A program made the position numbers and the translations under genes. From positions 24,283 to 88,282 of the forward strand of contig LADP01000036.1 in the NCBI GenBank assembly GCA_000961575.1: a stretch of 64,000 nt of DNA. The letters run 5' to 3'. Of the stretch, positions 2,277-59,078 are shown piece by piece. The notes under the pieces are model-generated. The model saw only the letters and a list, made by a program, of their open reading frames with translations. It was not told the origin of the DNA and made no database searches. This stretch comes from Peptococcaceae bacterium BRH_c8a. GTDB lineage: Bacteria; Bacillota; Desulfotomaculia; Desulfotomaculales; Desulfallaceae. How positions within the stretch are numbered: the first letter of the stretch is position 1; each line of letters starts with the position of its first letter.

Positions 2277-3122
2277 TTGCGTTTGCATTATAGACTGCTC
2301 ATTGCCTTATTTTTGGTTTTGGCTTTCTTGTCGGGTTGCTCTAAAGGTGATGTAACTGCACTGATGTTCGCTGCCAGCGACGGTAAAGATGAAACCGTGC
2401 GGGAACTTCTGGACAAGGGCCTGGATGTTAATACTAGATTTGACGGTAAGGAAACGGCCCTGATGCGGGCGTCCCTACACGGTCAACAGGATGTGTTAGA
2501 AGTACTATTGGAACGGGATGCCGATGTTAACGCCGTTGATGACGATGGTATGAACGCTCTGATGCGGGCTGCACTAAACGGTCATCGTGCGGCGGTAGAA
2601 AAGCTGCTTTCGGCCGGAGCGGAAGTCAATGCAACCGATGCCATGGGTGGTACGGCACTGACATTGGCTGCATTTAAAAACCATGTTGACGTTATGCGGG
2701 TATTGCTGGAGCATGGAGCGGTCGTAGATGCACAGAACAAGAATGGCATGACGGCGCTTATGTTCGCCAGTGGTGAGGGAAACATTGATTGCATAGAGAT
2801 GTTACTGGAGCACGGTGCAAGTCCGTATAAAAAGAATGTGGACGGAGCCAATGCTTTAATATTGGCTACGATAAGTGGAAAAACCCTGGCAGTGCGTGAG
2901 TTATTGGAAAACGGCGCTCAGGTGAACGCCAGGGATAACGAAGGTGCAACAGCGTTAATTATGGCTGCCAATTATAAACACACAGAAATTCTTAACATAC
3001 TGCTGGAGTACGGTGCGAATGTAAATCCTAAGCAAATCGATGGGTGGACAGCCTTAATGTTTGCCGAAGAGAAAGGTCAGGATGAAATGATCAAGTCGTT
3101 GAAAGAAGCCGGGGCCAGGTAA
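2277..3122 (+). CDS. Ankyrin-repeat lipoprotein
   Basis: Signal peptide with lipobox LSGC, followed by about 8 tandem 33-aa ankyrin repeats (G.TALM.A...GH..VV..LL..GA.VNA). The real start is probably the TTG at 2283, 6 nt after GGAGGG. Confidence 0.8.
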   Translation: MRLHYRLLIALFLVLAFLSGCSKGDVTALMFAASDGKDETVRELLDKGLDVNTRFDGKETALMRASLHGQQDVLEVLLERDADVNAVDDDGMNALMRAALNGHRAAVEKLLSAGAEVNATDAMGGTALTLAAFKNHVDVMRVLLEHGAVVDAQNKNGMTALMFASGEGNIDCIEMLLEHGASPYKKNVDGANALILATISGKTLAVRELLENGAQVNARDNEGATALIMAANYKHTEILNILLEYGANVNPKQIDGWTALMFAEEKGQDEMIKSLKEAGAR

Positions 3123-3295
3123 CCTCTCAAGAGATTTGCCTTCGCTTAAAAACCCATAGAGCGTACATCTTTAGGCATAATTTGGCTAAAGATGTACGTC
3201 AGGTACAATTTACCCTTATGCAGCGGGGTTATTTTTTTGCACATTTAACAATAATAACAAACGAAAGAATACTATTATTTTGGAGTGATCAGGGC

Positions 3296-4138
3296 ATGCG
3301 CTCCATGTGGAAAGGTGCCGTTACTTTCGGTTTGATATATGTCCCTGTCAAACTATATGCGGCCACAGAAAAAAAGGACGTTAAGTTCAACTACCTGCAT
3401 AAAAAATGCAGCACTCCGGTGCGCTACGTACGCTTTTGCCCTTATTGTGACGACGAGGTGGAAATGGGTGAAATAGTAAGGGGATTTGAATACGAAAAGG
3501 GCCGGTATATTACCATGACTGACGAAGAACTGGCCGAAGTGGCCGGGGAAAAAGAGCGTAGTATTGAAATAGTCGATTTTGTTGATGCAGGGTTAATTGA
3601 CCCCGTGTATTATGATCGTTCCTACTATCTGGCGCCTGGTGAGGGCGGAACCAAAGTATACGCTCTGCTTAAACAGGCTATGGAAGAGAGCGGGAGGGCC
3701 GCTGTGGCACACGTGGCTATCAGGAGCAGGAAATCATTGTGTGTAATTCGGCCGGCTGGCCAGGCGCTGGTTATGGAAACCATGTTTTATGCCGATGAAG
3801 TACGCCAGGTGGAAAAAATTGAGGAGATTGGCGCCCCGGCCAAGGTACATGAAAATGAAATTAAAATGGCGGTTAGCCTCATTGACAGTCTGACCGTAGC
3901 TTTCGACCCGGCCAAATATAAAAGCGAATACCGGGAAAAACTTCACGAGGCTATTCGGGCTAAAATAGCCGGCGAAGCAGTAGTTGAAAAACCGGCCATA
4001 CCTGACACCGAGAAGGTAGTAGACCTGATGTCAGCATTAAAGGCCAGTATTGATTTGGCGCGGGATCAACGAGACAAAAAACCGCGTACCCGAAAAACCA
4101 CGCCACAAAAACGCAAAGCGGCGGCCGACAAAAAGTAA
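3296..4138 (+). CDS. ku: Ku DNA end-binding protein (NHEJ)
   Basis: MRSMWKGAVTFGLIYVPVKLYAA is the canonical bacterial Ku N-terminus, and the C-terminal tail is Lys-rich. The track ORF start at 3182 is an upstream extension. Confidence 0.9.
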   Translation: MRSMWKGAVTFGLIYVPVKLYAATEKKDVKFNYLHKKCSTPVRYVRFCPYCDDEVEMGEIVRGFEYEKGRYITMTDEELAEVAGEKERSIEIVDFVDAGLIDPVYYDRSYYLAPGEGGTKVYALLKQAMEESGRAAVAHVAIRSRKSLCVIRPAGQALVMETMFYADEVRQVEKIEEIGAPAKVHENEIKMAVSLIDSLTVAFDPAKYKSEYREKLHEAIRAKIAGEAVVEKPAIPDTEKVVDLMSALKASIDLARDQRDKKPRTRKTTPQKRKAAADKK

Positions 4139-4207
4139 TAGTCGTTATGCTTTTAGCATCAATTAAAATGCTGTCGGGGGTGCATTAACCTGCATGCCAC
4201 AGGAGCT

Positions 4208-5155
4208 TTGCCACTAGTTAAACCTATGTTGGCCGTGTCTGCGGATCCATTCGATGACCCTGACTATGTATTTGAGGTTAAGTGGGATGGTTACCGCTGC
4301 CTTGCTTACTTGGAAGCAGGGACGGCCACCCTGTTTTCCAGGAATCTTAAAAATATAACCCCTCATTTTCCTGACCTGGGGGATATGTATCGGCAGGCTC
4401 AAAAAACTTCAGTAATTTTAGACGGTGAGATAATCGTTCTACGAGACGGGCAGCCGTCTTTTGCCGCTTTACAATCCCGGGCTAGACTTACCGATAGTCA
4501 GAAGATAAGCTGGGCGGCGCAGAGTATGCCGGCTCTTTACATGGCATTTGATATACTTTATTGCCAGGGCAATTCGCTGTTGGATTTTCCGTTGTCTGAC
4601 CGGTTTGAGGAATTAAAGGCAGTTGTTGGGCCAAACCGGTTGATTGTTGTTTCGGATGGGGTACGCGGCGCTGGGATATCCTTTTTCCGAGCCTGTGTTG
4701 GCAGGGGCCTTGAAGGGATGATGGCCAAGCGCATGGACAGCAGGTACCTGCCCGGAACCAGGTCACCCCTGTGGAAGAAAATACGTGCCACTCGTGAAGC
4801 TGACTTAGTAATTTGCGGGTATCGGAGCGGTAAGGGCAGTCGGCGGTTGGGGGCGCTGGTACTGGGTGCCTGGAATGGCAAAGAATTTGCTTACCAGGGG
4901 CTTGTGGGCACTGGTATCGACAGGGTTGCAGAAGAGGCCTTGTTAATTAAACTGGCGGCCATTGGCACTAAGCATAAAAGCCTGGAGGTGGCAGAACTCT
5001 TGGGGCGGTCTGTACACTGGGTAATACCTGAAATAGTGTGCAGGGTAGAATACCTGACCCTTACCGGGCAGGGGCTTCTTAGGCACCCGGTCTACCGGGG
5101 ACTGCGCAGTGATAAAAATCCCCGGGAGTGTAGACCGGCGGATGAACAGTGTTAA
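4208..5155 (+). CDS. ligD: ATP-dependent DNA ligase (LigD ligase domain as a stand-alone protein)
   Basis: Adenylation motif EVKWDGYR and downstream DGEIV, EGMMAKR and LWKKIR motifs. The start is ambiguous: TTG 4208 is only 2 nt after GGAG, and ATG 4226 is the alternative. Confidence 0.85.
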   Translation: MPLVKPMLAVSADPFDDPDYVFEVKWDGYRCLAYLEAGTATLFSRNLKNITPHFPDLGDMYRQAQKTSVILDGEIIVLRDGQPSFAALQSRARLTDSQKISWAAQSMPALYMAFDILYCQGNSLLDFPLSDRFEELKAVVGPNRLIVVSDGVRGAGISFFRACVGRGLEGMMAKRMDSRYLPGTRSPLWKKIRATREADLVICGYRSGKGSRRLGALVLGAWNGKEFAYQGLVGTGIDRVAEEALLIKLAAIGTKHKSLEVAELLGRSVHWVIPEIVCRVEYLTLTGQGLLRHPVYRGLRSDKNPRECRPADEQC

Positions 5156-5227
5156 AGAATTTGTGGTAGTTTCCCCACCAAGACCATACTAAGAAACACA
5201 TTAAGATTTTGAATTGAGGTAGAAATT

Positions 5228-6181
5228 ATGGGCGAAAAGGCTAGGGAAATAGTTGAGATTGATGGTCGGGTGCTAACCCTGTCCAATTTGGACAAGATGA
5301 TGTGGCCGGAAGAAAATATCACTAAGGCGCACCTGATTAAATATTACCTTGATTTGGCACCGGTTTTGCTTCCTTACATCCGCAATAGGCCGCTGGTGAT
5401 GAAAAGGTATCCAGACGGAATCCAAGGGGATTTTTTTTATCAGAAAGAATGCCCGGATTACGCTCCTGACTGGGTGGAAACGTATTCCGTTAAACATACC
5501 CATAAGGTAATCAACTATATCGTTTGTAACGACACCCCTACCCTGGCCTGGATGGCCGGTCAGGGATGCCTGGAGATACATGCCTGGCTTAGTCGGGTAG
5601 ATGAAATTGATTGCCCTGACTTGGCGGTATTTGACCTAGACCCGGCCGAAGGCGTCTCTTTCAGCTCGGTAAAGCAAGTGGCTCTGATTGTCCGCGGTGT
5701 CTTGGAACAGTTTGAAATAACCGGTTTTCCTAAAACCTCTGGTTCAAGCGGCATGCACGTTTTCATACCTTTAGAAGCTGATTACTCGTTCACCCGGGTT
5801 ACTGAAGCCATGAAATACCTGGCCGAATTAATTTTGCGGGCTTACCCTGACCTTGTTACGGTGGAAAGGAGCAAGGCCAAACGCAAAGGTAAGGTTTATC
5901 TTGATTATCTACAAAACGGATGGGGTAAAACCATGGCTTTCCCATATAGTTTAAGACCGCTGTCCGGTGCGCCGGTATCCACACCTTTAACCTGGCATGA
6001 AGTAGAATATAAAGAATTTAGTCATCGATTTTATAACATACAGAACATTGCCCGGCGAATTAGCCAGAATGGCGACCCTTACTCCAATATTTTTCAGGCC
6101 CCGCAGAGCCTTGACCGACTGTTTAATGTTCTGTCTCCGGAGCAGTTTGATATTTCGGCTGTTGATTCCGCACGCCTGTGA
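5228..6181 (+). CDS. LigD polymerase/primase (AEP) domain protein
   Basis: The PDW...VFDLDP...SGSSGMHVFIPL...YLDYLQN pattern is characteristic of the LigD primase-polymerase domain. It lies directly downstream of the ligase gene. Confidence 0.85.
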   Translation: MGEKAREIVEIDGRVLTLSNLDKMMWPEENITKAHLIKYYLDLAPVLLPYIRNRPLVMKRYPDGIQGDFFYQKECPDYAPDWVETYSVKHTHKVINYIVCNDTPTLAWMAGQGCLEIHAWLSRVDEIDCPDLAVFDLDPAEGVSFSSVKQVALIVRGVLEQFEITGFPKTSGSSGMHVFIPLEADYSFTRVTEAMKYLAELILRAYPDLVTVERSKAKRKGKVYLDYLQNGWGKTMAFPYSLRPLSGAPVSTPLTWHEVEYKEFSHRFYNIQNIARRISQNGDPYSNIFQAPQSLDRLFNVLSPEQFDISAVDSARL

Positions 6182-12710: not shown

Positions 12711-12791
12711 CAGTAGTCAGTAGTCAGTAGTCAGAATGGGGAAACGCATTAATGATATTTACGTATTCTGAATTCTGACTCCTGACTACTG
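12711..12791 (+). repeat. Heptamer-array palindromic element, copy A (hslV-hslU spacer)
   Basis: Left arm CAGTAGTCAGTAGTCAGTAGTCAGAAT pairs with right arm ATTCTGAATTCTGACTCCTGACTACTG at 24 of 27 positions. The loop is 27 nt. Confidence 0.9.
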
Positions 12792-12825
12792 AGTGCTTCA
12801 TTTTAAAAACCGGGGGGATTCGTTG

Positions 12826-16211: not shown

Positions 16212-16360
16212 GAATTCAGTAGTCAGAATTCAGGAGTCAGAATAAAAGAACCGGCATTCGCCGTCTCTATAACAATGAATATTACGGATAAAAGCATTAT
16301 ACTAAGGGTATTTTGACTATCGACTTCTGACTACTGAAATCTGAATTTCGAATATCTGAC
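16212..16360 (+). repeat. Heptamer-array palindromic element, copy B (rpsB-tsf spacer)
   Basis: Left arm GAATTCAGTAGTCAGAATTCAGGAGTCAGAAT, then a 66-nt spacer starting AAAAGAACCGGCATTCGCCGTCTC. Right arm ATTTTGACTATCGACTTCTGACTACTGAAATCTGAATTTCGAATATCTGAC. Confidence 0.9.
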
Positions 16361-21878: not shown

Positions 21879-21960
21879 CAGGAGTCAGGAGTCAGAAGCT
21901 AGAATGAAAGAACGGTTATCGTCTCGAATTATTCTGAATTCTGACTCCTTAATTATGAAT
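21879..21960 (+). repeat. Heptamer-array palindromic element, copy C (reference copy)
   Basis: CAGGAGTCAGGAGTCAGAAGCTAGAAT, core GAAAGAACGGTTATCGTCTCGAATT, then ATTCTGAATTCTGACTCCTTAATTATGAAT. Confidence 0.9.
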
Positions 21961-23205: not shown

Positions 23206-23240
23206 TTTTGACTACTGACTACTGACTACTGAATTCTAAA
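23206..23240 (+). repeat. Heptamer array, copy D (solo CTGAC-type arm)
   Basis: TTTTGAC TACTGAC TACTGAC TACTGAA TTCTAAA: five phased 7-mers equivalent to the right arm of copies A-C. No matching left arm lies upstream. Confidence 0.85.
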
Positions 23241-29604: not shown

Positions 29605-32583
29605 TTGGTAAAAAAACGAGTCCACGAAGTTGCCAGGGAACTAGACCTGGAAAGCAAGGAATTAATGCGGCAGCTTACTCGCATGGGCGTGGAAACAAAG
29701 TCCCATATGAGTACCCTGGACGATGCTGATATAGTAAAGTTAACAAATCATTACAAGGCTCAAAACGTCAAGCCGGCTACTACTAGTAGGCCGGCTAATA
29801 ATGATCGGCCGGCACCGCAAAAGCCTCGTGATGGTGCTGATGTCGGTCGGCAGGGAGCGCCACGTACCGGTCGTGAAAATCAACGTGGTGGCCAAAACCG
29901 TTATGATCGCGGTCCAGGACTGGTGGATCGGGTTCCATCACGGCCGCCCGACAGAAGATTTACGGAAAAACCTCGTTATAATGCGGGGAAAGGGGTTCCA
30001 CCCAGGAAAAACCCTGCTGATATTCAAGCGAGACCTGATACTCAGCCTCAACCTCAACCGCAATCCCATGAGCAGCCTAAACCGGCATCCCGGGAAAATC
30101 AATCGGTACCGCAAGAAAGGCAACCGGCGATGGTTAGACCTGAAACAAACGCTGGCGAACGGCGTGATAACAGGGATAACCGGCCTAGACCGGCAGAGCA
30201 CACCCAAAATACTAGAACCGGTGCTGCCGATAGCAGGCAACAACGGCCACAATTTGAACAGGGTCATAAAGATGGGCGACCCATGGGCGCACCCGGTTCC
30301 CGTGGTACAGGAACATCGAACCAACAAGGTGGAGCATCCGCTCCTCGTGGCGGGGCACCTGCTCCTCGTGGTGGGGCACCTGCTCCTCGTGGTGGGGCAC
30401 CTGCTCCTCGCGGTGGGGCACCAGGTCCTCGCGGTGGGGCACCAGGTCCTCGTAGTGGGGCACCAGGTCCTCGTAGTGGGGCACCAGGTCCTCGTAGTGG
30501 GGCACCCGGTCCGCGTAGTGGAGCACCCGGTCCTCGCGGTGGAGCACCCGGTCCGCGTAGTGGAGCACCCGGCCCTCGCGGTGGAGATGCAGCCAAGATA
30601 AAACTGGCCGAGAAGGCGAAACCGGACAAAGTTAAGGCTTTAGAAAAAACCAAGGCTCAGGAACGGGTTAAACAGGTTGAAAAGCAAGCATATAAGGGTA
30701 AAGCAGATAAAAAAGGACGTTTTGATAAACGCGACCTGGCGAATGAAAAGTCGCAGGCATTCAAGCGGGGGGGGCATAAGAGAAGACCCCAGCAGGAAAC
30801 GCGACAAGTGCCGGTTAGAGAGAAAAAGCCCATTACTATCGGTGAAACTATCACCGTTAAAAATCTGGCCGAAAGGATGTCCATTAGCGCATCTGAGATA
30901 ATTAAAAAGCTTATGGCATTGGGTGTAATGGCCAGTATCAACCAGGAAATTGATTCTGACACGGCTACCATCCTGGCCAATGAACTGGGTTTTAAAGTGC
31001 ACGTAAAAATGGATATGGAAAAAGAAGCTCAGGTGGTTCAGGAAACTGAGGACGCTCCGGCGGATCTGCGTGCGCGCCCCTGCGTAGTAACCATCATGGG
31101 CCATGTTGACCATGGTAAAACATCACTGCTTGACTCCATCAGAGAGTCAAATGTAACTGCCTCCGAGGCAGGTGGTATTACCCAGCATATTGGCGCCTAT
31201 CAAGTAGAGCATAAAGGTAAAAAAATTACCTTTGTTGATACACCGGGCCACGAGGCATTCACGGCCATGCGGGCTAGGGGGGCCAAGGTAACCGATATTG
31301 CCATCCTGGTGGTGGCAGCGGACGACGGGGTAATGCCACAAACAGTGGAAGCTATAAACCACGTCCGGGCGGCGGGAGTGCCTATCATAATTGCTGTCAA
31401 CAAGATAGATAAACCTGATGCCGAACCTCAGAAAGTAAAACGCGAGCTGACCGAATATAATCTGGTAGCCGAAGAATGGGGCGGAGAAACAATCTTCGTT
31501 GAAGTTTCGGCCAAGGAAAAGACAAATATTAATGAATTACTAGAAATGATTCTCTTGGTATCGGAAATCAACGAATTTAAAGCCAATCCCGACCGGGCGG
31601 CACGGGGTACTGTAATTGAGGCCGAACTGGATAAGGGACGCGGCCCGGTAGCCACTATACTGGTACAAAACGGGACGCTAAAAGTAGGCGACTTTATCAT
31701 CGCCGGAGTCGCGTATGGTAAAGTGCGAGCCATGGTGGATCATGCAGGTCGTCGGGTTAAAAAAGCAGGACCTTCAACACCTGTTGAGGTATTGGGGTTC
31801 TCTGAAGTCCCACCTGCCGGTGAACTGTTCTTTGCTGTAGAAGGCGAAAAACTAGGCAAACAGGTAGTAGACGAACGGCTGGCGAAAAAGCGGGAAGTGG
31901 AAATGAAAACCGCCGCGCCCAAGGTATCCCTGGATGATTTATTCAACCAAATCAAGGAAGGCCAGGTCAAAGAGTTAAACATTATCATCAAGGCCGACGT
32001 GCAGGGTTCGGTTGAGGCTGTCCGGCAGGCTCTAGAAAAAATAAATACTGAAGAGGTACGGGTGAACGTAATTCACGGCGGTGTTGGTGCTGTCACCGAA
32101 TCAGATATTATGCTTGCCTCGGCATCAAATGCCATTGTGATTGGTTTTAACGTGCGGCCCGACGTAAATGCCAGAAAAGCAGTAGAAGCTGAAAAAATCG
32201 ATATCAGACTCTACCGGGTTATTTATGACGCCATTGAGGATATCAAGGCGGCTATGAGCGGCCTGTTGGAACCGGAATACAAAGAAGTAATTCTAGGTCG
32301 CGTAGAAGTGCGTAAGACATTCAAGGTATCCAAAGTGGGTACCATTGCCGGCTGCTATGTCACCGAGGGTAAAATAACCCGAGATGCCGGGGTTCGGGTA
32401 ATCCGAGACGGTATCGTGGTTCATGAGGGAACCCTGGAATCGCTTAAGCGATTTAAGGATGACGTGCGCGAAGTTGTTCATGGCTACGAGTGTGGCATTA
32501 CCGTTGATCGATTTAATGATATCAGGGAAAATGACCAGTTGGAGGCATTTACCACGGAAGCAGTAAAAAGGGAACTGGCTTAA
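29605..32583 (+). CDS. infB: Translation initiation factor IF-2
   Basis: GGAGGTGA-N5-TTG start, N-terminus [18 protein letters not shown], and G domain [26 protein letters not shown]. Confidence 0.95.
30331..30583 (+). repeat. In-frame 21-nt tandem repeat (12 units) inside infB
   Basis: Units GG(A/G)GCACC(T/A/C)G(C/G)TCC(T/G)CG(T/C)(G/A)GT encode 12 consecutive [G/S]GAP[A/G]PR heptapeptides. Confidence 0.95.
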
Positions 32584-36028: not shown

Positions 36029-36154
36029 TAACTACAAGATCATGCAATAGTATAAAAAGTTTGCTGAGCTAATATATTTTAAATAAGTGTTTTAAGATAA
36101 ACTCGTGGTGATTCAGAGCATTCATAATGCACATTTAGGGCATTTCCGAGTAAG

Positions 36155-36183
36155 TTTACTTGCCAGGTAGAATATGCTACAAT
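36155..36183 (+). promoter_or_regulatory. Possible promoter for the two small ORFs
   Basis: TTTACT, 17-nt spacer, TACAAT, upstream of ORF 36245. Confidence 0.3.
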
Positions 36184-36244
36184 AAAGAAGCCCTACGCCG
36201 CTGTTCACTTGATCCAGGGCGGGGGGAAGGGAGTCGTTTCATTC

Positions 36245-36472
36245 ATGGGGATCCCCAGGTTTGATTCACCCGACGAGGAAATTAAAAAATGGTTAAATCA
36301 TATCGCCCTCATCTGCCTGAGCGAAGATTTTCAGGAACTAAAGAAGGAACTGGAAAAGATATATATGCAATCACAGATGGAAGATGCGCAGTTAGTGGCC
36401 TTTAAAGATGCCTTATACGCATTTTTAGCTCAGGAAGAGGATGAGATGGCCCGGTTGGCCGGGACGAATTGA
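36245..36472 (+). CDS. Hypothetical small acidic helical protein (candidate antitoxin)
   Basis: 75 aa counted from the ATG at 36245 (the track ORF starts at TTG 36209). It ends 7 nt before the next ORF. I do not recognise the family. Confidence 0.4.
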   Translation: MGIPRFDSPDEEIKKWLNHIALICLSEDFQELKKELEKIYMQSQMEDAQLVAFKDALYAFLAQEEDEMARLAGTN

Positions 36473-36479
36473 ATCGATA

Positions 36480-36707
36480 ATGGAAATGAAAATAATTGTC
36501 ACCGAACACGCGCGCAAAAGGCTGCGCGACTACCGACAAGATAAAATCACCACCGCCGATATTATCACCGCTGCTAGCAGTGTTCCCGGTCGTATACCTA
36601 CCGCCACGCGGTTCAGAGGTTTTTTTGCCAGATCCGGGCGAATGTTTGACATTGTGGCTAAGGATATTTCTTCGGGACGACTGGTAATTACCATCATCGG
36701 CAAATAA
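36480..36707 (+). CDS. Small basic protein, DUF4258-like (candidate toxin)
   Basis: MEMKIIVTEHARKRLRDY...GRLVITIIGK. The T.HA..R...R opening and the hydrophobic V.T C-terminal strand resemble DUF4258-type small toxins. Recognised by eye only. Confidence 0.4.
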   Translation: MEMKIIVTEHARKRLRDYRQDKITTADIITAASSVPGRIPTATRFRGFFARSGRMFDIVAKDISSGRLVITIIGK

Positions 36708-36756
36708 CAACAGCTTTAAATGGATGTTTTAAAAAATGGACATCCTATTTAAATAA

Positions 36757-36786
36757 GTGTTCAAAGATAAGCAGGCTTTTGAACAC
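36757..36786 (+). repeat. GTGTTCAAAG / CTTTTGAACAC hairpin (family 3 copy)
   Basis: 9-10 bp stem with a loop of about 10 nt, upstream of rpsO. The same stem sequence recurs at 49599-49636. Confidence 0.75.
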
Positions 36787-36873
36787 TAAAATAGTGAACT
36801 GTCAGCTAGGGAATGCGCTTATCTCCGGCGGTTAACTTGGCAGGCAGCGATTATAAAATCAGGAGGTGAAAAC

Positions 36874-39638: not shown

Positions 39639-39665
39639 ACCCCTATAAACGGGGTCTTATTTTTT
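39639..39665 (+). terminator. Rho-independent terminator after pnp
   Basis: ACCCC tataaac GGGGT followed by CTTATTTTTT. Confidence 0.8.
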
Positions 39666-39667
39666 AC

Positions 39668-39762
39668 AGTCACAAGTCACAAGTCACAAGTCGAAGGTCA
39701 AAGGCCGAAAGTCGAAAGGTCATCGTTTAATGTATGACTTTTGATCTTTGACTTTCGACCTT
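39668..39762 (+). repeat. Heptamer-array palindromic element, variant copy E
   Basis: Eight phased 7-mers (AGTCACA x3, AGTCGAA, GGTCAAA, GGCCGAA, AGTCGAA, AGGTCAT), a 10-nt loop, then the inverse array ATGACTT TTGATCT TTGACTT TCGACCT. Confidence 0.9.
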
Positions 39763-39794
39763 AAACTGATTTATTGAAGCGGGGAGGGGTTTGT

Positions 39795-43506: not shown

Positions 43507-44289
<783 letters not shown>

Positions 44290-44445
44290 TATTGTCGGGG
44301 CATTCTGTATTATGATTACTTATTCTAGATATCTTAAAATAACATAAAATATTGGTCGAAAAACAAGGATTTTATTAAATAATAAAGAAGGTTTATGCAA
44401 TATAACATAAAAAATTATAATTTCCAGTAGCGGGGAGGCAAATAT

Positions 44446-47051: not shown

Positions 47052-47143
47052 CTCAGGAGTCAGGAGCTAGGAGAAAGAACGCAAGAACGCTTACCGTCTT
47101 GAATTATGCTGAATTTTTGACACTGAATTCTGAACACCTGAAT
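47052..47143 (+). repeat. Heptamer-array element, degenerate copy G
   Basis: TCAGGAG TCAGGAG CTAGGAG, core AAAGAACGCAAGAACGCTTACCGTCTTGAATTAT, then GCTGAAT TTTTGAC ACTGAAT TCTGAAC ACCTGAAT. The core matches copy C. Confidence 0.8.
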
Positions 47144-52254: not shown

Positions 52255-53499
52255 ATGAAATTTTTAGTACTTAAGTTTGGGGGTACCTCTCTCAACACAC
52301 CTGAACTTAGGGAAAGAGCGGCTGGAAAAGTAATTGCCGCTATGGATGAGGGGTATCTGCCCGTGGTGGTAGTTTCCGCTATGGGTCGGCAGGGGGACCC
52401 TTATGCAACCGATACATTGCTAAGCCTAATTAAGAAGACTTATCATGATTTGCCGGAACGGGAAAAGGATATATTAATGACCTGCGGTGAGGTTATTTCT
52501 GGTGTCATGTTCACAGCTACTTTGCAGTCCTTGGGGCGACCGGCCGTTTTTTTGACCGGGTCCCAGGCCGGCATTATTACTGATAAAAATTTTGCCGAGG
52601 CTAGGATAATGCAGGTTAACCCCCATAAGGTTACCGCTTACGCACAGGAAGGATACATTGTTGTAGTGGCTGGTTTCCAGGGGGCTACCGAAGACGGTGA
52701 AATTACAACTTTGGGACGTGGCGGCAGTGATACCACTGCAGCTGCTCTGGGTGTGGCCTTAAATGCGGTATATGTGGATATATACACCGATGTTGAGGGC
52801 ATTATGACTGCCGACCCGCGTATTGTGACTGAGGCCAGAGCCTTGGACGCAATTACCTATGATGAAATTTGCCACCTGGCCCATGAAGGCGCAAAAGTAA
52901 TCCACCCCAGGGCAGTTGAAATTGCTATGCAAAAAGGGGTGCCGCTGCGGGTGCGTTCAACATTCAGCGACACGCTTGGTACTCTGGTGACAACCTCTGG
53001 TGAAGTATATAAGGGGACCATTGACATTACTAGAGATCGAATAATTACCGGTATCGCTTATATTTCAGGTATCACCCAGTTTAAGGTGCTTACTGAACCC
53101 GGCACCGGTGGGCTGAAACAGAAAAAAAGAATGTTCAGGGCGCTGGCGCTGGCAGGTGTTAGCATAGATTTTATTAACATTGTGCAGGAAACGGTTTTAT
53201 TTACCGTTAATGATGAACTAACCGCTAAGGCGACCCGGGTACTGGAAAACGCCGGGTATCACGCCGAGGTAATCTCGGGTTGCGCCAAGGTATCTGCAGT
53301 GGGGGCAGGAATGTCCGGCGTACCCGGAGTTATTGCAGATATTGTTGAGGCGTTGGCCGGGGAGGATGTACAGATTTTACAATGTAACGACTCCCATACC
53401 ACGGTGTGGGTGCTGGTCAGCCGTGAACAGATGGAGATGGCTGTCCGGGCTTTGCACACTAAGTTCATGTTAAAAGGAGAGGGGACACACCTCAGCTAA
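52255..53499 (+). CDS. dapG: Aspartokinase (DapG/LysC type)
   Basis: VLKFGGTSL, LGRGGSDTTA, and C-terminal ACT domains. The last roughly 6 codons and the stop lie inside repeat family 2. Confidence 0.9.
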   Translation: MKFLVLKFGGTSLNTPELRERAAGKVIAAMDEGYLPVVVVSAMGRQGDPYATDTLLSLIKKTYHDLPEREKDILMTCGEVISGVMFTATLQSLGRPAVFLTGSQAGIITDKNFAEARIMQVNPHKVTAYAQEGYIVVVAGFQGATEDGEITTLGRGGSDTTAAALGVALNAVYVDIYTDVEGIMTADPRIVTEARALDAITYDEICHLAHEGAKVIHPRAVEIAMQKGVPLRVRSTFSDTLGTLVTTSGEVYKGTIDITRDRIITGIAYISGITQFKVLTEPGTGGLKQKKRMFRALALAGVSIDFINIVQETVLFTVNDELTAKATRVLENAGYHAEVISGCAKVSAVGAGMSGVPGVIADIVEALAGEDVQILQCNDSHTTVWVLVSREQMEMAVRALHTKFMLKGEGTHLS

Positions 53500-53607
53500 T
53501 GGGTAATAAGGAATGGGGACATACCTCAGCTTAATGGTTAAAGTCTTGGGGTCGAGGAATGTCCCCGATTGGATTGGTCGAGGAATGTCCCTGACTGGAA
53601 TGTCCCC
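53481..53607 (+). repeat. GGGGACA...TGTCCCC hairpin repeat, nested copies (family 2)
   Basis: Two left halves GGGGACA(C/T)ACCTCAGCT at 53481 and 53515. Two and a half right halves (G)GTCGAGGAATGTCCC(C) and GGAATGTCCCC follow at 53548, 53577 and 53597. Confidence 0.9.
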
Positions 53608-56779: not shown

Positions 56780-57601
56780 ATGTCTTACTACCAATCTTTT
56801 GACGAAGTACCCGGTGTTTTTCCCTACCAACCACCTTCACGCCCAGATCCGGAAACCAGCCCTGAGCGTACCGACAATCCCAACCAGGACCCCCGGACGG
56901 ATCGGGCCAGAGTTACGGGCAAGTCCAAAAATATCATTGAAGCCGTTAAAGAAATGGGCACCACTCAGGTACCTGAGATTAAAAGCAATATTCATTGCCT
57001 GACCATTGTGGGTCAAATTGAAGGACACCTGGTGTTACCGCCACAAAACAAAACCACCAAGTACGAACACCTGATTCCCCAGTTGGTGGCGTTGGAGCAA
57101 AGCCATGAAATTGAGGGCGTGCTCATCGTATTAAACACGGTGGGTGGCGATGTGGAAGCGGGTCTTGCCATCGCTGAAATTATCTCCAGTCTCTCCAAAC
57201 CCACCGTATCTTTAGTGCTGGGCGGAGGACATAGTATTGGTGTTCCCATTGCTGTATCAACAGACTATTCGTATATCGCTGAAACAGCTAGCATGACCAT
57301 CCATCCTATCCGCTTGACCGGACTGGTTATCGGTGTGCCCCAAACCTATGAGTATTTAGATAAAATGCAAGACCGGGTAGTCCGGTTTATCACATCTCAT
57401 TCCAAAATTGGCGAAGAAAGATTCCGTGATTTAATGTTTCGTACCGGTGAACTGGCCCGGGATATCGGTACCGTACTCATCGGCCAGGATGCTGTGGATT
57501 GTGATTTGGTCGATGAGGTGGGAGGTATGAGTCAGGCTATCAATAAGCTAAAGCAGCTTATTGATGAACAGAAAGCCGGAGCCGGGGGGCTAAAGCATTG
57601 A
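56780..57601 (+). CDS. tepA: ClpP-fold protein TepA-like (translocation-enhancing protein)
   Basis: IVGQIEGH...[16 protein letters not shown]...GGGHSIG resembles Bacillus TepA/YmfB, and GGGGAGG SD lies before the ATG at 56780. The track ORF start at 56564 reads through the repeats and the terminator. Confidence 0.8.
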
Positions 57602-57816
57602 TTTTATACACACCGATGCAGTTAGAACTGGTGCTGGCCGGGTTTGAACAATTGGATCGTTCTTCGGAGAGGGAAGTTACCGTTAACGGAGTACCTGCCA
57701 TTGTAAAGGATGTCGGTGGTGGCAAACTGGAACTGGTGCAAATTTTAAGCACTAATCCAATGGATTTCCTGCGTAGCGAATTATATCCAGGAGCAATGGT
57801 CAAGGCTGACGATTAA
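57598..57816 (+). CDS. YlzJ-like small protein
   Basis: 72 aa with a TTGA overlap with the tepA stop. The position after tepA matches Bacillus ylzJ. Confidence 0.55.
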
Positions 57817-57859
57817 GCCTATAAGTTATCATTGATGAACATCTCGAACAATAAGGTAG

Positions 57860-57897
57860 GCAGCGTGCTTATATTTTAGGCACGCTGCTTACTTTTA
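57860..57897 (+). terminator. Rho-independent terminator
   Basis: GCAGCGTGC ... GCACGCTGC (9 bp) followed by TTACTTTT. Confidence 0.85.
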
Positions 57898-57984
57898 AAA
57901 GGCGAATTTTTTTCATAAGTATTTTCGGGTAGACCACCATGCCGCTAAACGCGGCACCAGCAGAAGGATGAAAAACCAGCTTAC

Positions 57985-58177
57985 GCGGCGATCCGGTGAT
58001 ATCCGGAGCGAACGGTGCACCTGGATGCGTTGATTAGCCCGTCATAGCCCCGAATTCAGGCTGCTTAGGGCGTAGCCAAACGGTTAAGCAGTTTATGCCA
58101 TGCGGTAACAATAACCCGATCCGATCACAACAATAAGAATTGCAAGAGAGAGCGGAGCGATATCACCGGAGCGCCGC
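57985..58177. other. Non-coding G+C-rich segment bounded by 19-nt inverted repeats (candidate structured RNA or MITE-like insert)
   Basis: GCGGCGATCCGGTGATATC (57985-58003) pairs with GATATCACCGGAGCGCCGC (58159-58177) at 18 of 19 positions. An internal hairpin CTGCTTA...TAAGCAG is present, and no plausible ORF exists in any frame. Confidence 0.5.
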
Positions 58178-58247
58178 GCCCACTACAACCAACTTTAAAA
58201 GTATTTTCAGGGTAGTATTTTCTAGGTAGTAGAACGGCTTGTCTCTG

Positions 58248-58256
58248 TGATATAAT
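58248..58256 (+). promoter_or_regulatory. Extended -10 promoter element for uppP
   Basis: TGATATAAT (TGnTATAAT) lies about 30 nt upstream of the uppP start. Confidence 0.4.
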
Positions 58257-58286
58257 GATGCTGTTTGATTTTGAGAGATAAGGGCT

Positions 58287-59078
58287 GTGATGAAATTGGA
58301 TCTTATGCAAGCAATAATATTAGGTATTGTTCAGGGTTTGGGCGAGTTTTTACCAATTTCAAGTTCGGCACACTTGGTACTGGTACCATGGTTGATGGGC
58401 TGGGTTTATGCAGGACTTACTTTCGACGTGGCCCTGCACGTAGGTTCACTCGTTGCTATTGTTGGATTTTTCTGGCGCGACTGGCTAGTGTTAGTGTCTG
58501 ACGGGCTGCAGCGCAAGAAGACCACCGAAGGCCGCATGTTCTGGTATCTGGTGCTGGCCACCATACCTGGTGCCTTTACCGGGTATATGCTTGAAGACAT
58601 AGCAGAAACCGCTTTGCGCCATCCGCTATTAATTGGCATTATGCTTATGGTGATGGGCGTAATTCTGCATTTTGTTGATACGCGGTCACCAGCCACAAAA
58701 AAACTGACTGATATGGGATTGAAGGAAACCCTGTTAATTGGGGTGTCCCAAGCCCTGGCCATAATACCCGGCGTCTCCCGTTCCGGTATTACCATGACCG
58801 CCGGGCGACTTTTCGGCTTGACTCGGGAAACTTCAGCTCGTTTTTCCTTTTTGCTGGCTACCCCAATCATCGCTGGTGCAGGGTTGAAAAAAATAACCGA
58901 AATAACCACAGCGGACTTGACTATTCCTTTTATTACCGGTGTTGCAGTATCCGCCGTGGTGGGCTTCTTTGCAATCAAGTTTCTCTTGCAATACCTGGCC
59001 CGGTTCAGTTATGCTCTGTTTGTGTGGTATCGCCTAGTACTGGGCGCTCTGGTAATAGGGATTTATCTGGTCAGATAA
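58287..59078 (+). CDS. uppP: Undecaprenyl-diphosphate phosphatase
   Basis: ILGIVQGLGEFLPISSSAHL and PGVSRSG.T motifs; 8 TM helices. Confidence 0.9.
   Translation: MMKLDLMQAIILGIVQGLGEFLPISSSAHLVLVPWLMGWVYAGLTFDVALHVGSLVAIVGFFWRDWLVLVSDGLQRKKTTEGRMFWYLVLATIPGAFTGYMLEDIAETALRHPLLIGIMLMVMGVILHFVDTRSPATKKLTDMGLKETLLIGVSQALAIIPGVSRSGITMTAGRLFGLTRETSARFSFLLATPIIAGAGLKKITEITTADLTIPFITGVAVSAVVGFFAIKFLLQYLARFSYALFVWYRLVLGALVIGIYLVR

Follow-up and report, generated by a model that had tools for sequence, protein, structure and literature searches.

What are the arrays of a 7-nt unit that recur between the genes of Peptococcaceae bacterium BRH_c8a, and where do they come from? The question is raised by a 64,000-nt stretch of contig LADP01000036.1 (positions 24,283 to 88,282 of the forward strand; hereafter, the window), in which seven spacers carry such arrays. 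We refer to these elements as A to G in coordinate order, C being the copy at 21880..21960. An initial annotation, made from the letters alone, had taken them for copies of a single uncharacterized palindromic element. We find that they are homologous, dispersed, prone to the gain and loss of units, and turned over between relatives, and that they are a known kind of repeat, the heptamer hairpin of STRR type, newly found in this phylum. The reading that we favor, and consider slightly more likely than not, is that all seven represent gene-less versions of a widespread STRR-type heptamer-stem hairpin cassette, the gene-bearing form of which encloses a gene of the PF05635 family (23S rRNA-intervening-sequence protein).

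As for the arrays themselves, our analysis confirms the predictions at every coordinate. Tandem Repeats Finder reports a period of 7 in all seven spacers (12711, 16212, 21879, 21931, 23209, 39668, 44234, and 44264). With up to two mismatches allowed, AGTCAGNAGTCAG matches the window 30 times versus 1.93 expected, a count reached by 0 of 100 shuffles, and 26 of the 30 matches fall within the seven spacers, which represent 7 of the 35 window spacers of at least 40 nt. All the copies sit between protein-coding genes and none is overlapped by an open reading frame (ORF) of at least 50 aa, which is consistent with the proposal that they are non-coding. A, C, F, and G begin 0 to 9 nt past the upstream stop codon, while B and E lie right behind the classical terminators of rpsB and pnp. 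That every copy lies 3' of a + strand gene, as the initial annotation noted, is uninformative because 54 of the 56 mapped genes of the window are on the + strand. Since, in addition, GC skew is positive all along the window, the orientation of the elements relative to transcription cannot be separated from that relative to replication. The copies are unevenly spread, with none in 1 to 12.7 kb, in 47.2 to 64 kb, or in the following 9.5 kb of the contig. The earlier figure of roughly one copy for every 9 kb of core genome was therefore over-extrapolated from a clustered sample.

In A, B, C, E, and G, reverse-complement arrays (NCTGACT) come after AGTCAGN-type arrays of the + strand. Upon folding, strong hairpins were found for A (-39.2 kcal/mol), B, C, and E, with stems of at least 20 bp in A, B, and E, while D and F form none in the window. 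The long hairpins expected from paired arms are thus real for four copies, but the arms of G and F are decayed and D is a single arm, without partner and without hairpin. Similarly, the core sequence said to be common to B, C, and G is exact in two of them. AAGAACGNTTAYCGTCTYGAATTAT is matched exactly by C and G, with 0 matches expected, and these two copies show 78.6% identity over 98 nt. Both are readily recovered by a core model (nhmmer E of 9e-18 for C and 5e-15 for G), although G has a negligible fold z (Table 1). Copy B of the window matches the core weakly (E 0.011), its core being vestigial, though the orthologue of B in a sister species has a clear core. The inner junction, where the left arm ends, reads AGTCAGAATG in A, AGCTAGAATG in C, and AGTCAGAATA in B, while G has no ATG there; the junction of A and C is the same as in loci L202, L361, and L180, retrieved from other organisms. 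Together, the common units, arm order, inner junction, and 25-nt core show that the copies form one homologous dispersed family rather than a set of chance microsatellites.

Table 1. Positions and parts of the seven elements in the window
Copy	Coordinates	Strand	Setting	Left arm	Core, centre, or loop	Right arm	Fold z
A	12712..12793	+	hslV-hslU spacer; starts 6 nt behind hslV stop codon	12712-12737, (AGTCAGT)3 then AGTCAGAAT	centre 12738-12764	12765-12793, ATTCTGAATTCTGACTCCTGACTACTGAG	-6.2
B	16213..16360	+	rpsB-tsf spacer, downstream of rpsB terminator	16213-16243	degenerate core 16244-16268 (AAAAGAACCGGCATTCGCCGTCTCT), extended tip stem	16310-16360	-4.5
C	21880..21960	+	ytvI-dxr spacer; starts 9 nt behind ytvI stop codon	21880-21905, ending AGAATG	25-nt core 21906-21930, GAAAGAACGGTTATCGTCTCGAATT	21931-21949, ATTCTGAATTCTGACTCCT; degenerate units on to 21960	-3.9
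D	23208..23237	+	dxr-rseP spacer			lone right-arm (YCTGACT-type) array, (TGACTAC)3 then TGAATTC	
E	39668..39763	+	directly behind pnp intrinsic terminator (39639-39665)	39668-39722, AGTCACA x3, then AGTCGAA/GGTCAAA-type units	loop 39723-39734	39735-39763	-3.9
F	44234..44320	+	array begins within stop codon (TAG, 44233-44235) of pdaB-like gene	units to 44289: (AGTCAGG)4, AGTCAAA, AATCAAC, AATCAAA, AATCACA		decayed, ~44300-44320 (GCATTCTGTATTATGATTACT)	
G	47052..47143	+	spacer between PRC-barrel gene and SDH-protease gene	47052-47073	core 47074-47107, 8-nt duplication (AAGAACGC x2) then TTACCGTCTTGAATTAT	decayed, 47108-47143	-0.2

By its gene content, the window belongs to the conserved core of the chromosome in a spore-forming Firmicute, and the same sequence is found identical in independent ENA, JGI, and NCBI assemblies, which shows that the elements are no assembly artefact. 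The nearest genome is that of a sister species, Desulfotomaculum sp. BL5_bin.2 (locus L005; dxr 90% identical in aa, DNA ~89%), and Desulfoscipio geothermicus (~70% aa) is also among the nearest. Orthologous spacers, the comparison of which had been suggested for scoring presence and absence, proved informative. A, B, C, E, and F are found at the same sites in L005 and in the sister-species locus L207 (~89-91% nt), with a changed unit composition, while D is missing from the orthologous L005 spacer and is therefore a presence/absence difference. In L005, C is conserved, A has retained its arms around a centre that is ~130 nt longer, and B is shorter than in the window, with a canonical core (GAATGAAAGAATGATTTATCGTCTTGAATTATTC). 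In L207, E has retained its arms around a centre that is ~110 nt larger, and F is a two-armed hairpin (AGTCAGGATTCAGAAAT...GCATTCTGACTACT). Two strains (L209 and L210) are 98-99% identical to the window. In L209 (98.4%), E is 49 nt longer, corresponding to seven extra AAGTCGA units, and F is 14 nt shorter, corresponding to two units fewer; these differences being multiples of 7, it is whole units that the arrays gain or lose. The L210 contig stops inside copy E. In a more distant relative (L162; 66-70% nt), there is an element in the same hslV-hslU spacer with the core present, the tip stem of which shows one compensatory change (AGAACG/CGTCT to AAAACG/CGTTT). Altogether, the core occurs in four different spacers across three species, whereas no elements were found in the same spacers of D. 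geothermicus. Hairpin potential is retained in orthologues at 89-91% identity, and five of these relatives' copies (L005_A, L005_B, L005_C, L207_E, and L209_E) fold far better as sense than as antisense RNA (50 versus 9 G-U pairs). With centres replaced or enlarged and whole copies gained or lost between species, the elements are dispersed, unit-variable, and turned over, as is typical for selfish or neutral repeats and not for tuned regulators.

A minor observation concerns the hslV-hslU element of L005 (~615-750). The loop of its heptamer hairpin holds a second, nested small palindrome, ATGTCATCTTGAGCGCAGCGAAGGATCTTAAGATTCTTCACTTCGTTCAGAATGACAT, which resembles a repeat found in many bacterial genomes. 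The loop may thus serve as a landing pad for this palindrome.

The 25-nt core was found in this Firmicute lineage only, as judged from metagenome, viral, and ~300-locus searches. An nhmmer model of five core copies revealed nothing further in the window or in the ~300 loci except weak arm-driven matches. The pattern AAGAAYN{2,3}TTAYCGTCTYGAATTAT had 0 matches in the viral_contigs collection and 0 in metagenome_contigs, a collection evidently without this organism. The arms, in contrast, are widespread. When 72,556 plasmids were searched with copy C and with a metagenome AGTCAGR array, matches were found in Nostocales only (2 records and 24 records), on plasmids of Nostoc, Trichormus, Calothrix, Scytonema, and others. 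The two-armed layout, with AGTCAGG and CCTGACT in the same order, is present in a Calothrix plasmid, Nostoc punctiforme, and N. flagelliforme, and the AGTCAGR/YCTGACT unit, the arm order, and the inner junction AGTCAGAATG are identical between the window and the Nostocales plasmid arrays. Arrays of four AGTCAGN units were found in at least 120 metagenome stretches and in 79 stretches of viral contigs. In the first 80 metagenome stretches examined, the GC content ranges from 0.37 to 0.68. Copy C had no match in the phage collection. Since three composition-matched control heptamers gave 12, 21, and 36 viral matches, heptamer arrays are generic, AGTCAGN being favored 2-6 times. Arrays of at least four units are also seen in viral contigs labeled GVMAG, which are binned as giant-virus metagenome-assembled genomes (MAGs; L219 and L242), and several may be present in a single viral contig (e.g., four in IMGVR_UViG_3300014208_001435).

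Across these organisms, the order of the arms is fixed. In 200 unrelated metagenome, viral, and plasmid loci, array pairs up to 300 nt apart are arranged 29 times as '+-' and 0 times as '-+', which extends to other organisms the earlier claim that the purine-rich arm always comes first. This is non-trivial because X...X' still reads X...X' when reverse-complemented, while X'...X is a different arrangement. Moreover, many arrays finish in AGTCAGAATG, mirrored on the other side by CATTCTGACT, and an ATG directly follows 12 of 91 arrays, versus ~1.6% expected. Two-armed elements elsewhere are intergenic, 14 of 20 being within 26 nt of the stop codon of a long ORF.

These properties correspond to a described class of repeats. 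As initially proposed, the copies are distinct from REP, BOX, ERIC, RUP, and Correia elements, and no Rfam family matches anywhere in the window at gathering score. However, the statement that they belong to no named family does not stand, since the STRR heptanucleotide hairpin of heterocystous cyanobacteria is a match (PMC2670836). STRR are arrays of 7-bp repeats that lie between genes of cyanobacteria, for example hupS and hupL, and fold into hairpins; they have no established function, but roles in transcript stability or translational coupling have been proposed (PMC2670836). Like STRR, the window elements consist of tandem 7-nt units, are intergenic and dispersed, and often form inverted arrays that fold into hairpins inside operons, and their number of units differs between close relatives in 7-nt steps; the AGTCAGR/YCTGACT units, arm order, and AGAATG junction are those of the Calothrix and Nostoc plasmids. 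They differ in their host, which is a spore-forming Firmicute according to its gene order and sporulation genes and not a heterocystous cyanobacterium, and in having a conserved 25-nt core at the tip of the hairpin. STRR1-3 as originally named have other unit sequences (CCCCAGT, TTGGTCA, and CAACAGT). A cyanobacterial repeat class is thereby extended to a subsurface sulfate-reducer lineage, and the identity of the units with cyanobacterial ones points to horizontal spread or to a strong shared constraint.

What these arrays might belong to is suggested by the genes that they bracket. On the N. punctiforme plasmid pNPUN01, arrays are followed by an ATG, the gene of a 121-aa "four helix bundle protein," and inverted arrays. 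Likewise, when metagenome arms are 347-528 nt apart, the enclosed genes all belong to PF05635 and TIGR02436, with weak similarity to Avd of diversity-generating retroelements (DGR). In L116, L142, L202, and L124, the enclosed genes match PF05635 with E values from 1e-38 to 4e-6, in addition to TIGR02436. Among the loci retrieved by their arrays, all seven PF05635 genes abut an array (7/7). The upstream array supplies the AGGAG and the junction the ATG (AGGAGTCAGAATG) of the PF05635 gene, while the downstream arm encodes its final residues (e.g., ILTPDS) and stop. The fixed arm order would be accounted for by this arrangement because it is the purine-rich arm that gives the ribosome-binding site and start codon.

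We also performed the converse test, in which loci were picked by the PF05635 protein and not by the array. Among viral loci, five of six distinct groups have flanking inverted repeats with a lag-7 identity of 0.48-0.88, and the density of arrays is 3.7 per kb at gene ends and 0 elsewhere, compared with 0.063 per kb in unrelated bacterial loci totaling 1.2 Mb. All six PF05635 genes on plasmids have flanking arrays, the units of which vary by lineage: GGACAGA/GGACGGA in Azospirillum, GGGAAAA in Geminocystis, CTGCCYT in Stanieria and Nostoc 7120, AAAGCTA x15 (direct) in Pseudanabaena, and an 8-mer in Picosynechococcus. The same is true for six of six genome or metagenome contexts, which include a Planctomycetota MAG and a CPR MAG and mostly have NNTCAGA units. 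In addition, seven array matches from the Nostocales plasmid search directly abut PF05635 genes of the plasmid protein search. The PF05635 genes are co-directional with both host neighbors (cas genes; ugd and epimerase genes), from which they are separated by short gaps. That PF05635 genes and heptamer arrays belong together is thus moderately supported. We found no publication linking STRR-type heptamers with the PF05635 family within the literature searched, nor any relevant one on such heptamers in Desulfotomaculum.

Several side observations were made on these genes. In plasmids of Picosynechococcus PCC 7003 (L379) and Pseudanabaena galeata (L383), the PF05635 genes lie among CRISPR genes, cas10/cmr2 and cmr3 in one pair and cas6 and cas4 in the other, with arrays on their flanks. 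In P. galeata, there are ~15 copies of AAAGCTA upstream and AAAGCCA arrays downstream, all in direct orientation. The presence of the family in cas loci has been reported earlier (PMC3936711). In L385-L394 (the contexts of P0008, P0011, P0015, and P0051), members of one PF05635 subfamily, which share 60-86% identity with the L180 protein, recur in different organisms between UDP-glucose dehydrogenase and NAD-dependent epimerase genes, as if polysaccharide operons had a conserved site for their insertion. Finally, many PF05635 proteins are known just from contigs of ~0.5-2 kb. The arrays on their flanks may be points at which short-read assemblies break, and the end of the L210 contig inside copy E would agree with this.

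We propose the following scenario. The gene-bearing cassette would enclose a four-helix-bundle protein of ~120 aa (PF05635/TIGR02436), related to DGR Avd. Its 5' arm, (AGTCAGR)n, would provide a Shine-Dalgarno-like AGGAG, the inner junction AGTCAGAATG the start codon, and its 3' arm, (YCTGACT)n, the last codons and the stop. The order of the arms would be fixed by the gene-bearing form and simply retained by gene-less copies. With no evident promoter of their own, cassettes would sit co-directionally in operon spacers, near the upstream stop codon. The window copies could then be relatives, perhaps internally deleted derivatives, of such a cassette. Upon read-through transcription of an operon, the arms may pair as an RNA duplex of 20-35 bp, which RNase III would cut, by analogy with the stems of ribosomal intervening sequences (IVS). 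The cut would separate the flanking cistrons, and the upstream message would keep one half of the stem at its 3' end. The window copies are probably transcribed as parts of operons, and their transcripts would probably be cut by RNase III. It is plausible that they affect mRNA 3' ends or polarity, as suggested in the initial annotation, but the elements would be essentially selfish or neutral passengers, with any regulatory effect being secondary. A bolder extension, which we put forward only tentatively and consider rather doubtful, is that STRR-like heptamer repeats, which have lacked an explanation for over 30 years, would not be generic slippage products but would mark the ends of a selfish cassette that has no promoter and is shared across phyla, the autonomous form of which encodes the Avd-like IVS protein. 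Either by itself or together with a partner such as a reverse transcriptase or RNase III, this protein would bind, create, or spread the arrays, and the window hairpins would be horizontally acquired gene-less progeny.

A number of findings weigh against the cassette scenario. Neither a PF05635 gene nor a relic of one was detected in the window, its 9.5-kb extension, the sister-species loci, or the centres of the elements, including the enlarged centres of L005_A and L207_E (all E above 2). Since this lineage shows neither gene nor relic, we can only infer that the window copies descend from a gene-bearing cassette. The arrays are direct rather than inverted in two PF05635 contexts (Pseudanabaena and the CPR MAG) and have 8-nt units in one, and the PF05635 samples are small and partly hand-picked. 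Copies B and E sit behind terminators. The folding asymmetry between sense and antisense RNA is absent in the window copies, and it was not reproduced in 12 metagenome elements when these were oriented by gene direction. Since arrays of other heptamer units are common too, the pattern seen across phyla could in part be generic. Finally, the reverse order of events, with arrays arising first and PF05635 genes or small cores landing in them later, fits the same data equally well.

A simpler explanation is that the copies are plain long simple-sequence repeats (SSRs), produced by slippage in AT-rich spacers and pairing by chance or fold-back copying, with no common descent, gene link, or function. 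According to the accounts of Mrazek 2007 given in PMC4679880 and PMC4692102, heptanucleotides are the most abundant class of long SSRs in many bacteria, for which slippage was proposed. The 7-nt steps between strains would follow naturally, as would the viral arrays of control heptamers (12, 21, and 36), the single arm of D, and that of F, which reads as single-armed now that its right arm has decayed. Nevertheless, we find this explanation unlikely. Against it stand the 29:0 arm order, a junction AGTCAGAATG common to unrelated organisms with an ATG after 12 of 91 arrays, a 25-nt core conserved in four spacers of three species, an excess of arrays at PF05635 gene ends (3.7 versus 0.063 per kb), and the 2-6-fold lead of AGTCAGN over its controls. 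We give still less credit to a host-selected cis-acting RNA element, in which intercistronic stem-loops would stabilize mRNA, couple or damp translation, or titrate an RNA-binding protein via AGGA/UCAG. Roles of this sort have been proposed for STRR (stability or coupling; PMC2670836) and for TAACTGA repeats (binding sites; PMC4679880). In line with this possibility, copies lie just behind stop codons inside operons (e.g., hslV-hslU and ytvI-dxr-rseP), and orthologues at 89-91% identity have kept their hairpin potential, the diverged ones folding much better as sense RNA (50 versus 9 G-U pairs). REP elements offer an analogy, as Liang, Rudd and Deutscher reportedly found them within ~15 nt of stop codons in 2015. 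However, copy number, arm length, and centres differ at 98-99% strain identity and D is missing in the sister species, although an element tuned to regulate essential genes should be better conserved than this. Furthermore, D. geothermicus does without elements in the same spacers, G and F are decaying, neither window copies nor metagenome elements show a strand asymmetry, and units without GGA are interchangeable with others.

Mobilization by a transposase encoded elsewhere in the genome, with the heptamer-array inverted repeats being recognized as in REP/REPIN- or MITE-like non-autonomous elements, appears improbable. It would explain inverted terminal arrays of fixed polarity, dispersal into unrelated spacers, the presence/absence of D, the recurrence of one core at different sites in different species, and the palindrome nested in the centre of L005_A. 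Yet, no RAYT or other transposase is found among the screened genes of the 64-kb window, there is no target-site duplication at the borders examined, arm lengths are variable, and the sole gene recurrently enclosed encodes a four-helix-bundle protein without known transposase chemistry. That the copies might be Rho-independent terminators of the upstream genes has almost nothing to recommend it except that they are stem-loops directly 3' of genes. Their stems are AT-rich, with no U-tract after them, separate classical terminators precede B and E, and A lies inside the hslVU operon. The intrinsic-terminator reading was therefore rejected, for want of a GC-rich stem followed by a U-tract and because a terminator scan flags no copy.

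A close parallel to the proposed cassette is the IVS with an S23p/PF05635 ORF (Coxiella, Leptospira, Brucella, and Xanthomonas). In Coxiella, the IVS of the 23S rRNA carries a PF05635-type ORF and has a 28-bp terminal stem that is cut by RNase III in vitro; ahead of the ATG there is AGAAGA, then two to three GACAGAT repeats and GACAGAA; and the number of repeats is strain-variable, with one strain having a 176-bp deletion in the ORF (PMC4990558). The likeness lies in a stem made of long terminal inverted repeats, in a purine-rich Shine-Dalgarno-like run with tandem heptamers straight before the ATG, in the variable repeat number, and in an expendable ORF. In addition, the IVS stem is cut by RNase III, and non-ribosomal copies of the gene are bracketed by heptamer arrays. 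The window copies, however, are in mRNA spacers and not in 23S rRNA (helix 25 or 45), and have neither ORF nor relic; there is no rRNA in the window, and a scan for tRNA found none.

Other heptamer repeats show a more partial resemblance. Heptamers are over-represented among the long simple repeats of many bacteria (PMC4679880, PMC4692102). The GGGAATC repeats of Xanthomonas (Rehm 2015, PMC4692102) are, like other long SSRs, intergenic heptamer arrays with some inverted pairs, with constant gene neighbors and a length and sequence that vary between close relatives. However, no hairpin core or gene link has been described for them, and the G-rich units of Xanthomonas and Nostoc have been studied as G-quadruplex formers, a structure that the window units cannot adopt. 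The TAACTGA repeats of Beggiatoaceae, Cyanobacteria, and Bacteroidetes (MacGregor 2015, PMC4679880) also have a 7-nt unit with CTGA and indels in 7-nt steps, as well as a patchy cross-phylum distribution suggesting horizontal spread. These are direct repeats ending a few nt from the downstream start codon, with one inverted case reported, while the window elements are inverted pairs close to the upstream stop codon. REP/BIME and REPIN sequences share with the window elements that they are extragenic palindromes 3' of genes inside operons, nested and clustered, with proposed roles in mRNA stability, but they have no tandem heptamers and consist of a fixed 20-40-nt unit with a cognate RAYT transposase; the window shows no such unit and, among the genes screened, no RAYT. 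The SDR of N. punctiforme, which Elhai and colleagues reportedly described in 2008, are said to be dispersed units of 21-27 nt with a small conserved hairpin, often within tandem heptamers. This is reminiscent of the 25-nt core of the window elements (AGAACG/CGTCT stem), embedded between their arms. To our knowledge, SDR have been described in cyanobacteria only.

An important implication concerns heptamer arrays in general, which are over-represented in many bacteria without an agreed cause or function and for which the repeated bracketing of PF05635 genes offers a concrete handle. Ribosomal copies of PF05635 are intervening sequences excised by RNase III, and the family is related to Avd of DGR. 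Should this link prove true across whole genomes, it would explain, or make testable, the fixed arm order, the position behind stop codons, and the assembly breaks. There is also a practical side, since the arrays fragment metagenome assemblies, as seen for the contig that stops inside E and the many PF05635 genes on contigs of ~1 kb.

The remaining observations concern the rest of the window, in which the gene order is Ku/LigD, dprA, topA, trmFO, xerC, hslVU, rpsB-tsf, uppS-cdsA-ytvI-dxr-rseP-ispG-proS, and nusA-infB-rbfA-truB-ribF-rpsO-pnp, followed by dap/dpa genes, rnj, and ftsK. At 3182-6181, there is a full set for non-homologous end-joining, with Ku, LigD ligase, and LigD primase-polymerase as separate genes, adjoined by a gene for an ankyrin-repeat protein (2277-3122). 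The N-terminal region of infB (30328-30584) contains 12 copies of a 21-nt tandem repeat (GGTGGGGCACCCGGTCCTCGT). The called length of IF-2 is 992, 965, and 1005 aa in related contigs versus a 1016-aa ORF in the window, which suggests in-frame gain and loss of repeat units. The 845-nt gap between ribF and rpsO (36029-36873) holds two small called ORFs of 75 and 88 aa, which match no Pfam family and are conserved in all related contigs. In the lysC-dapA spacer (53474-53599), two tandem duplications adjoin (34 nt x2, then 26 nt x1.9), with no Rfam match at gathering score. Lastly, the otherwise identical ENA and JGI assemblies (L377 and L378) differ by a 19-nt indel at window ~57600-58290 (locus 4700-5600), in or near the 685-nt spacer behind a ClpP-like gene, where there is a 14-nt repeat (58200-58231).

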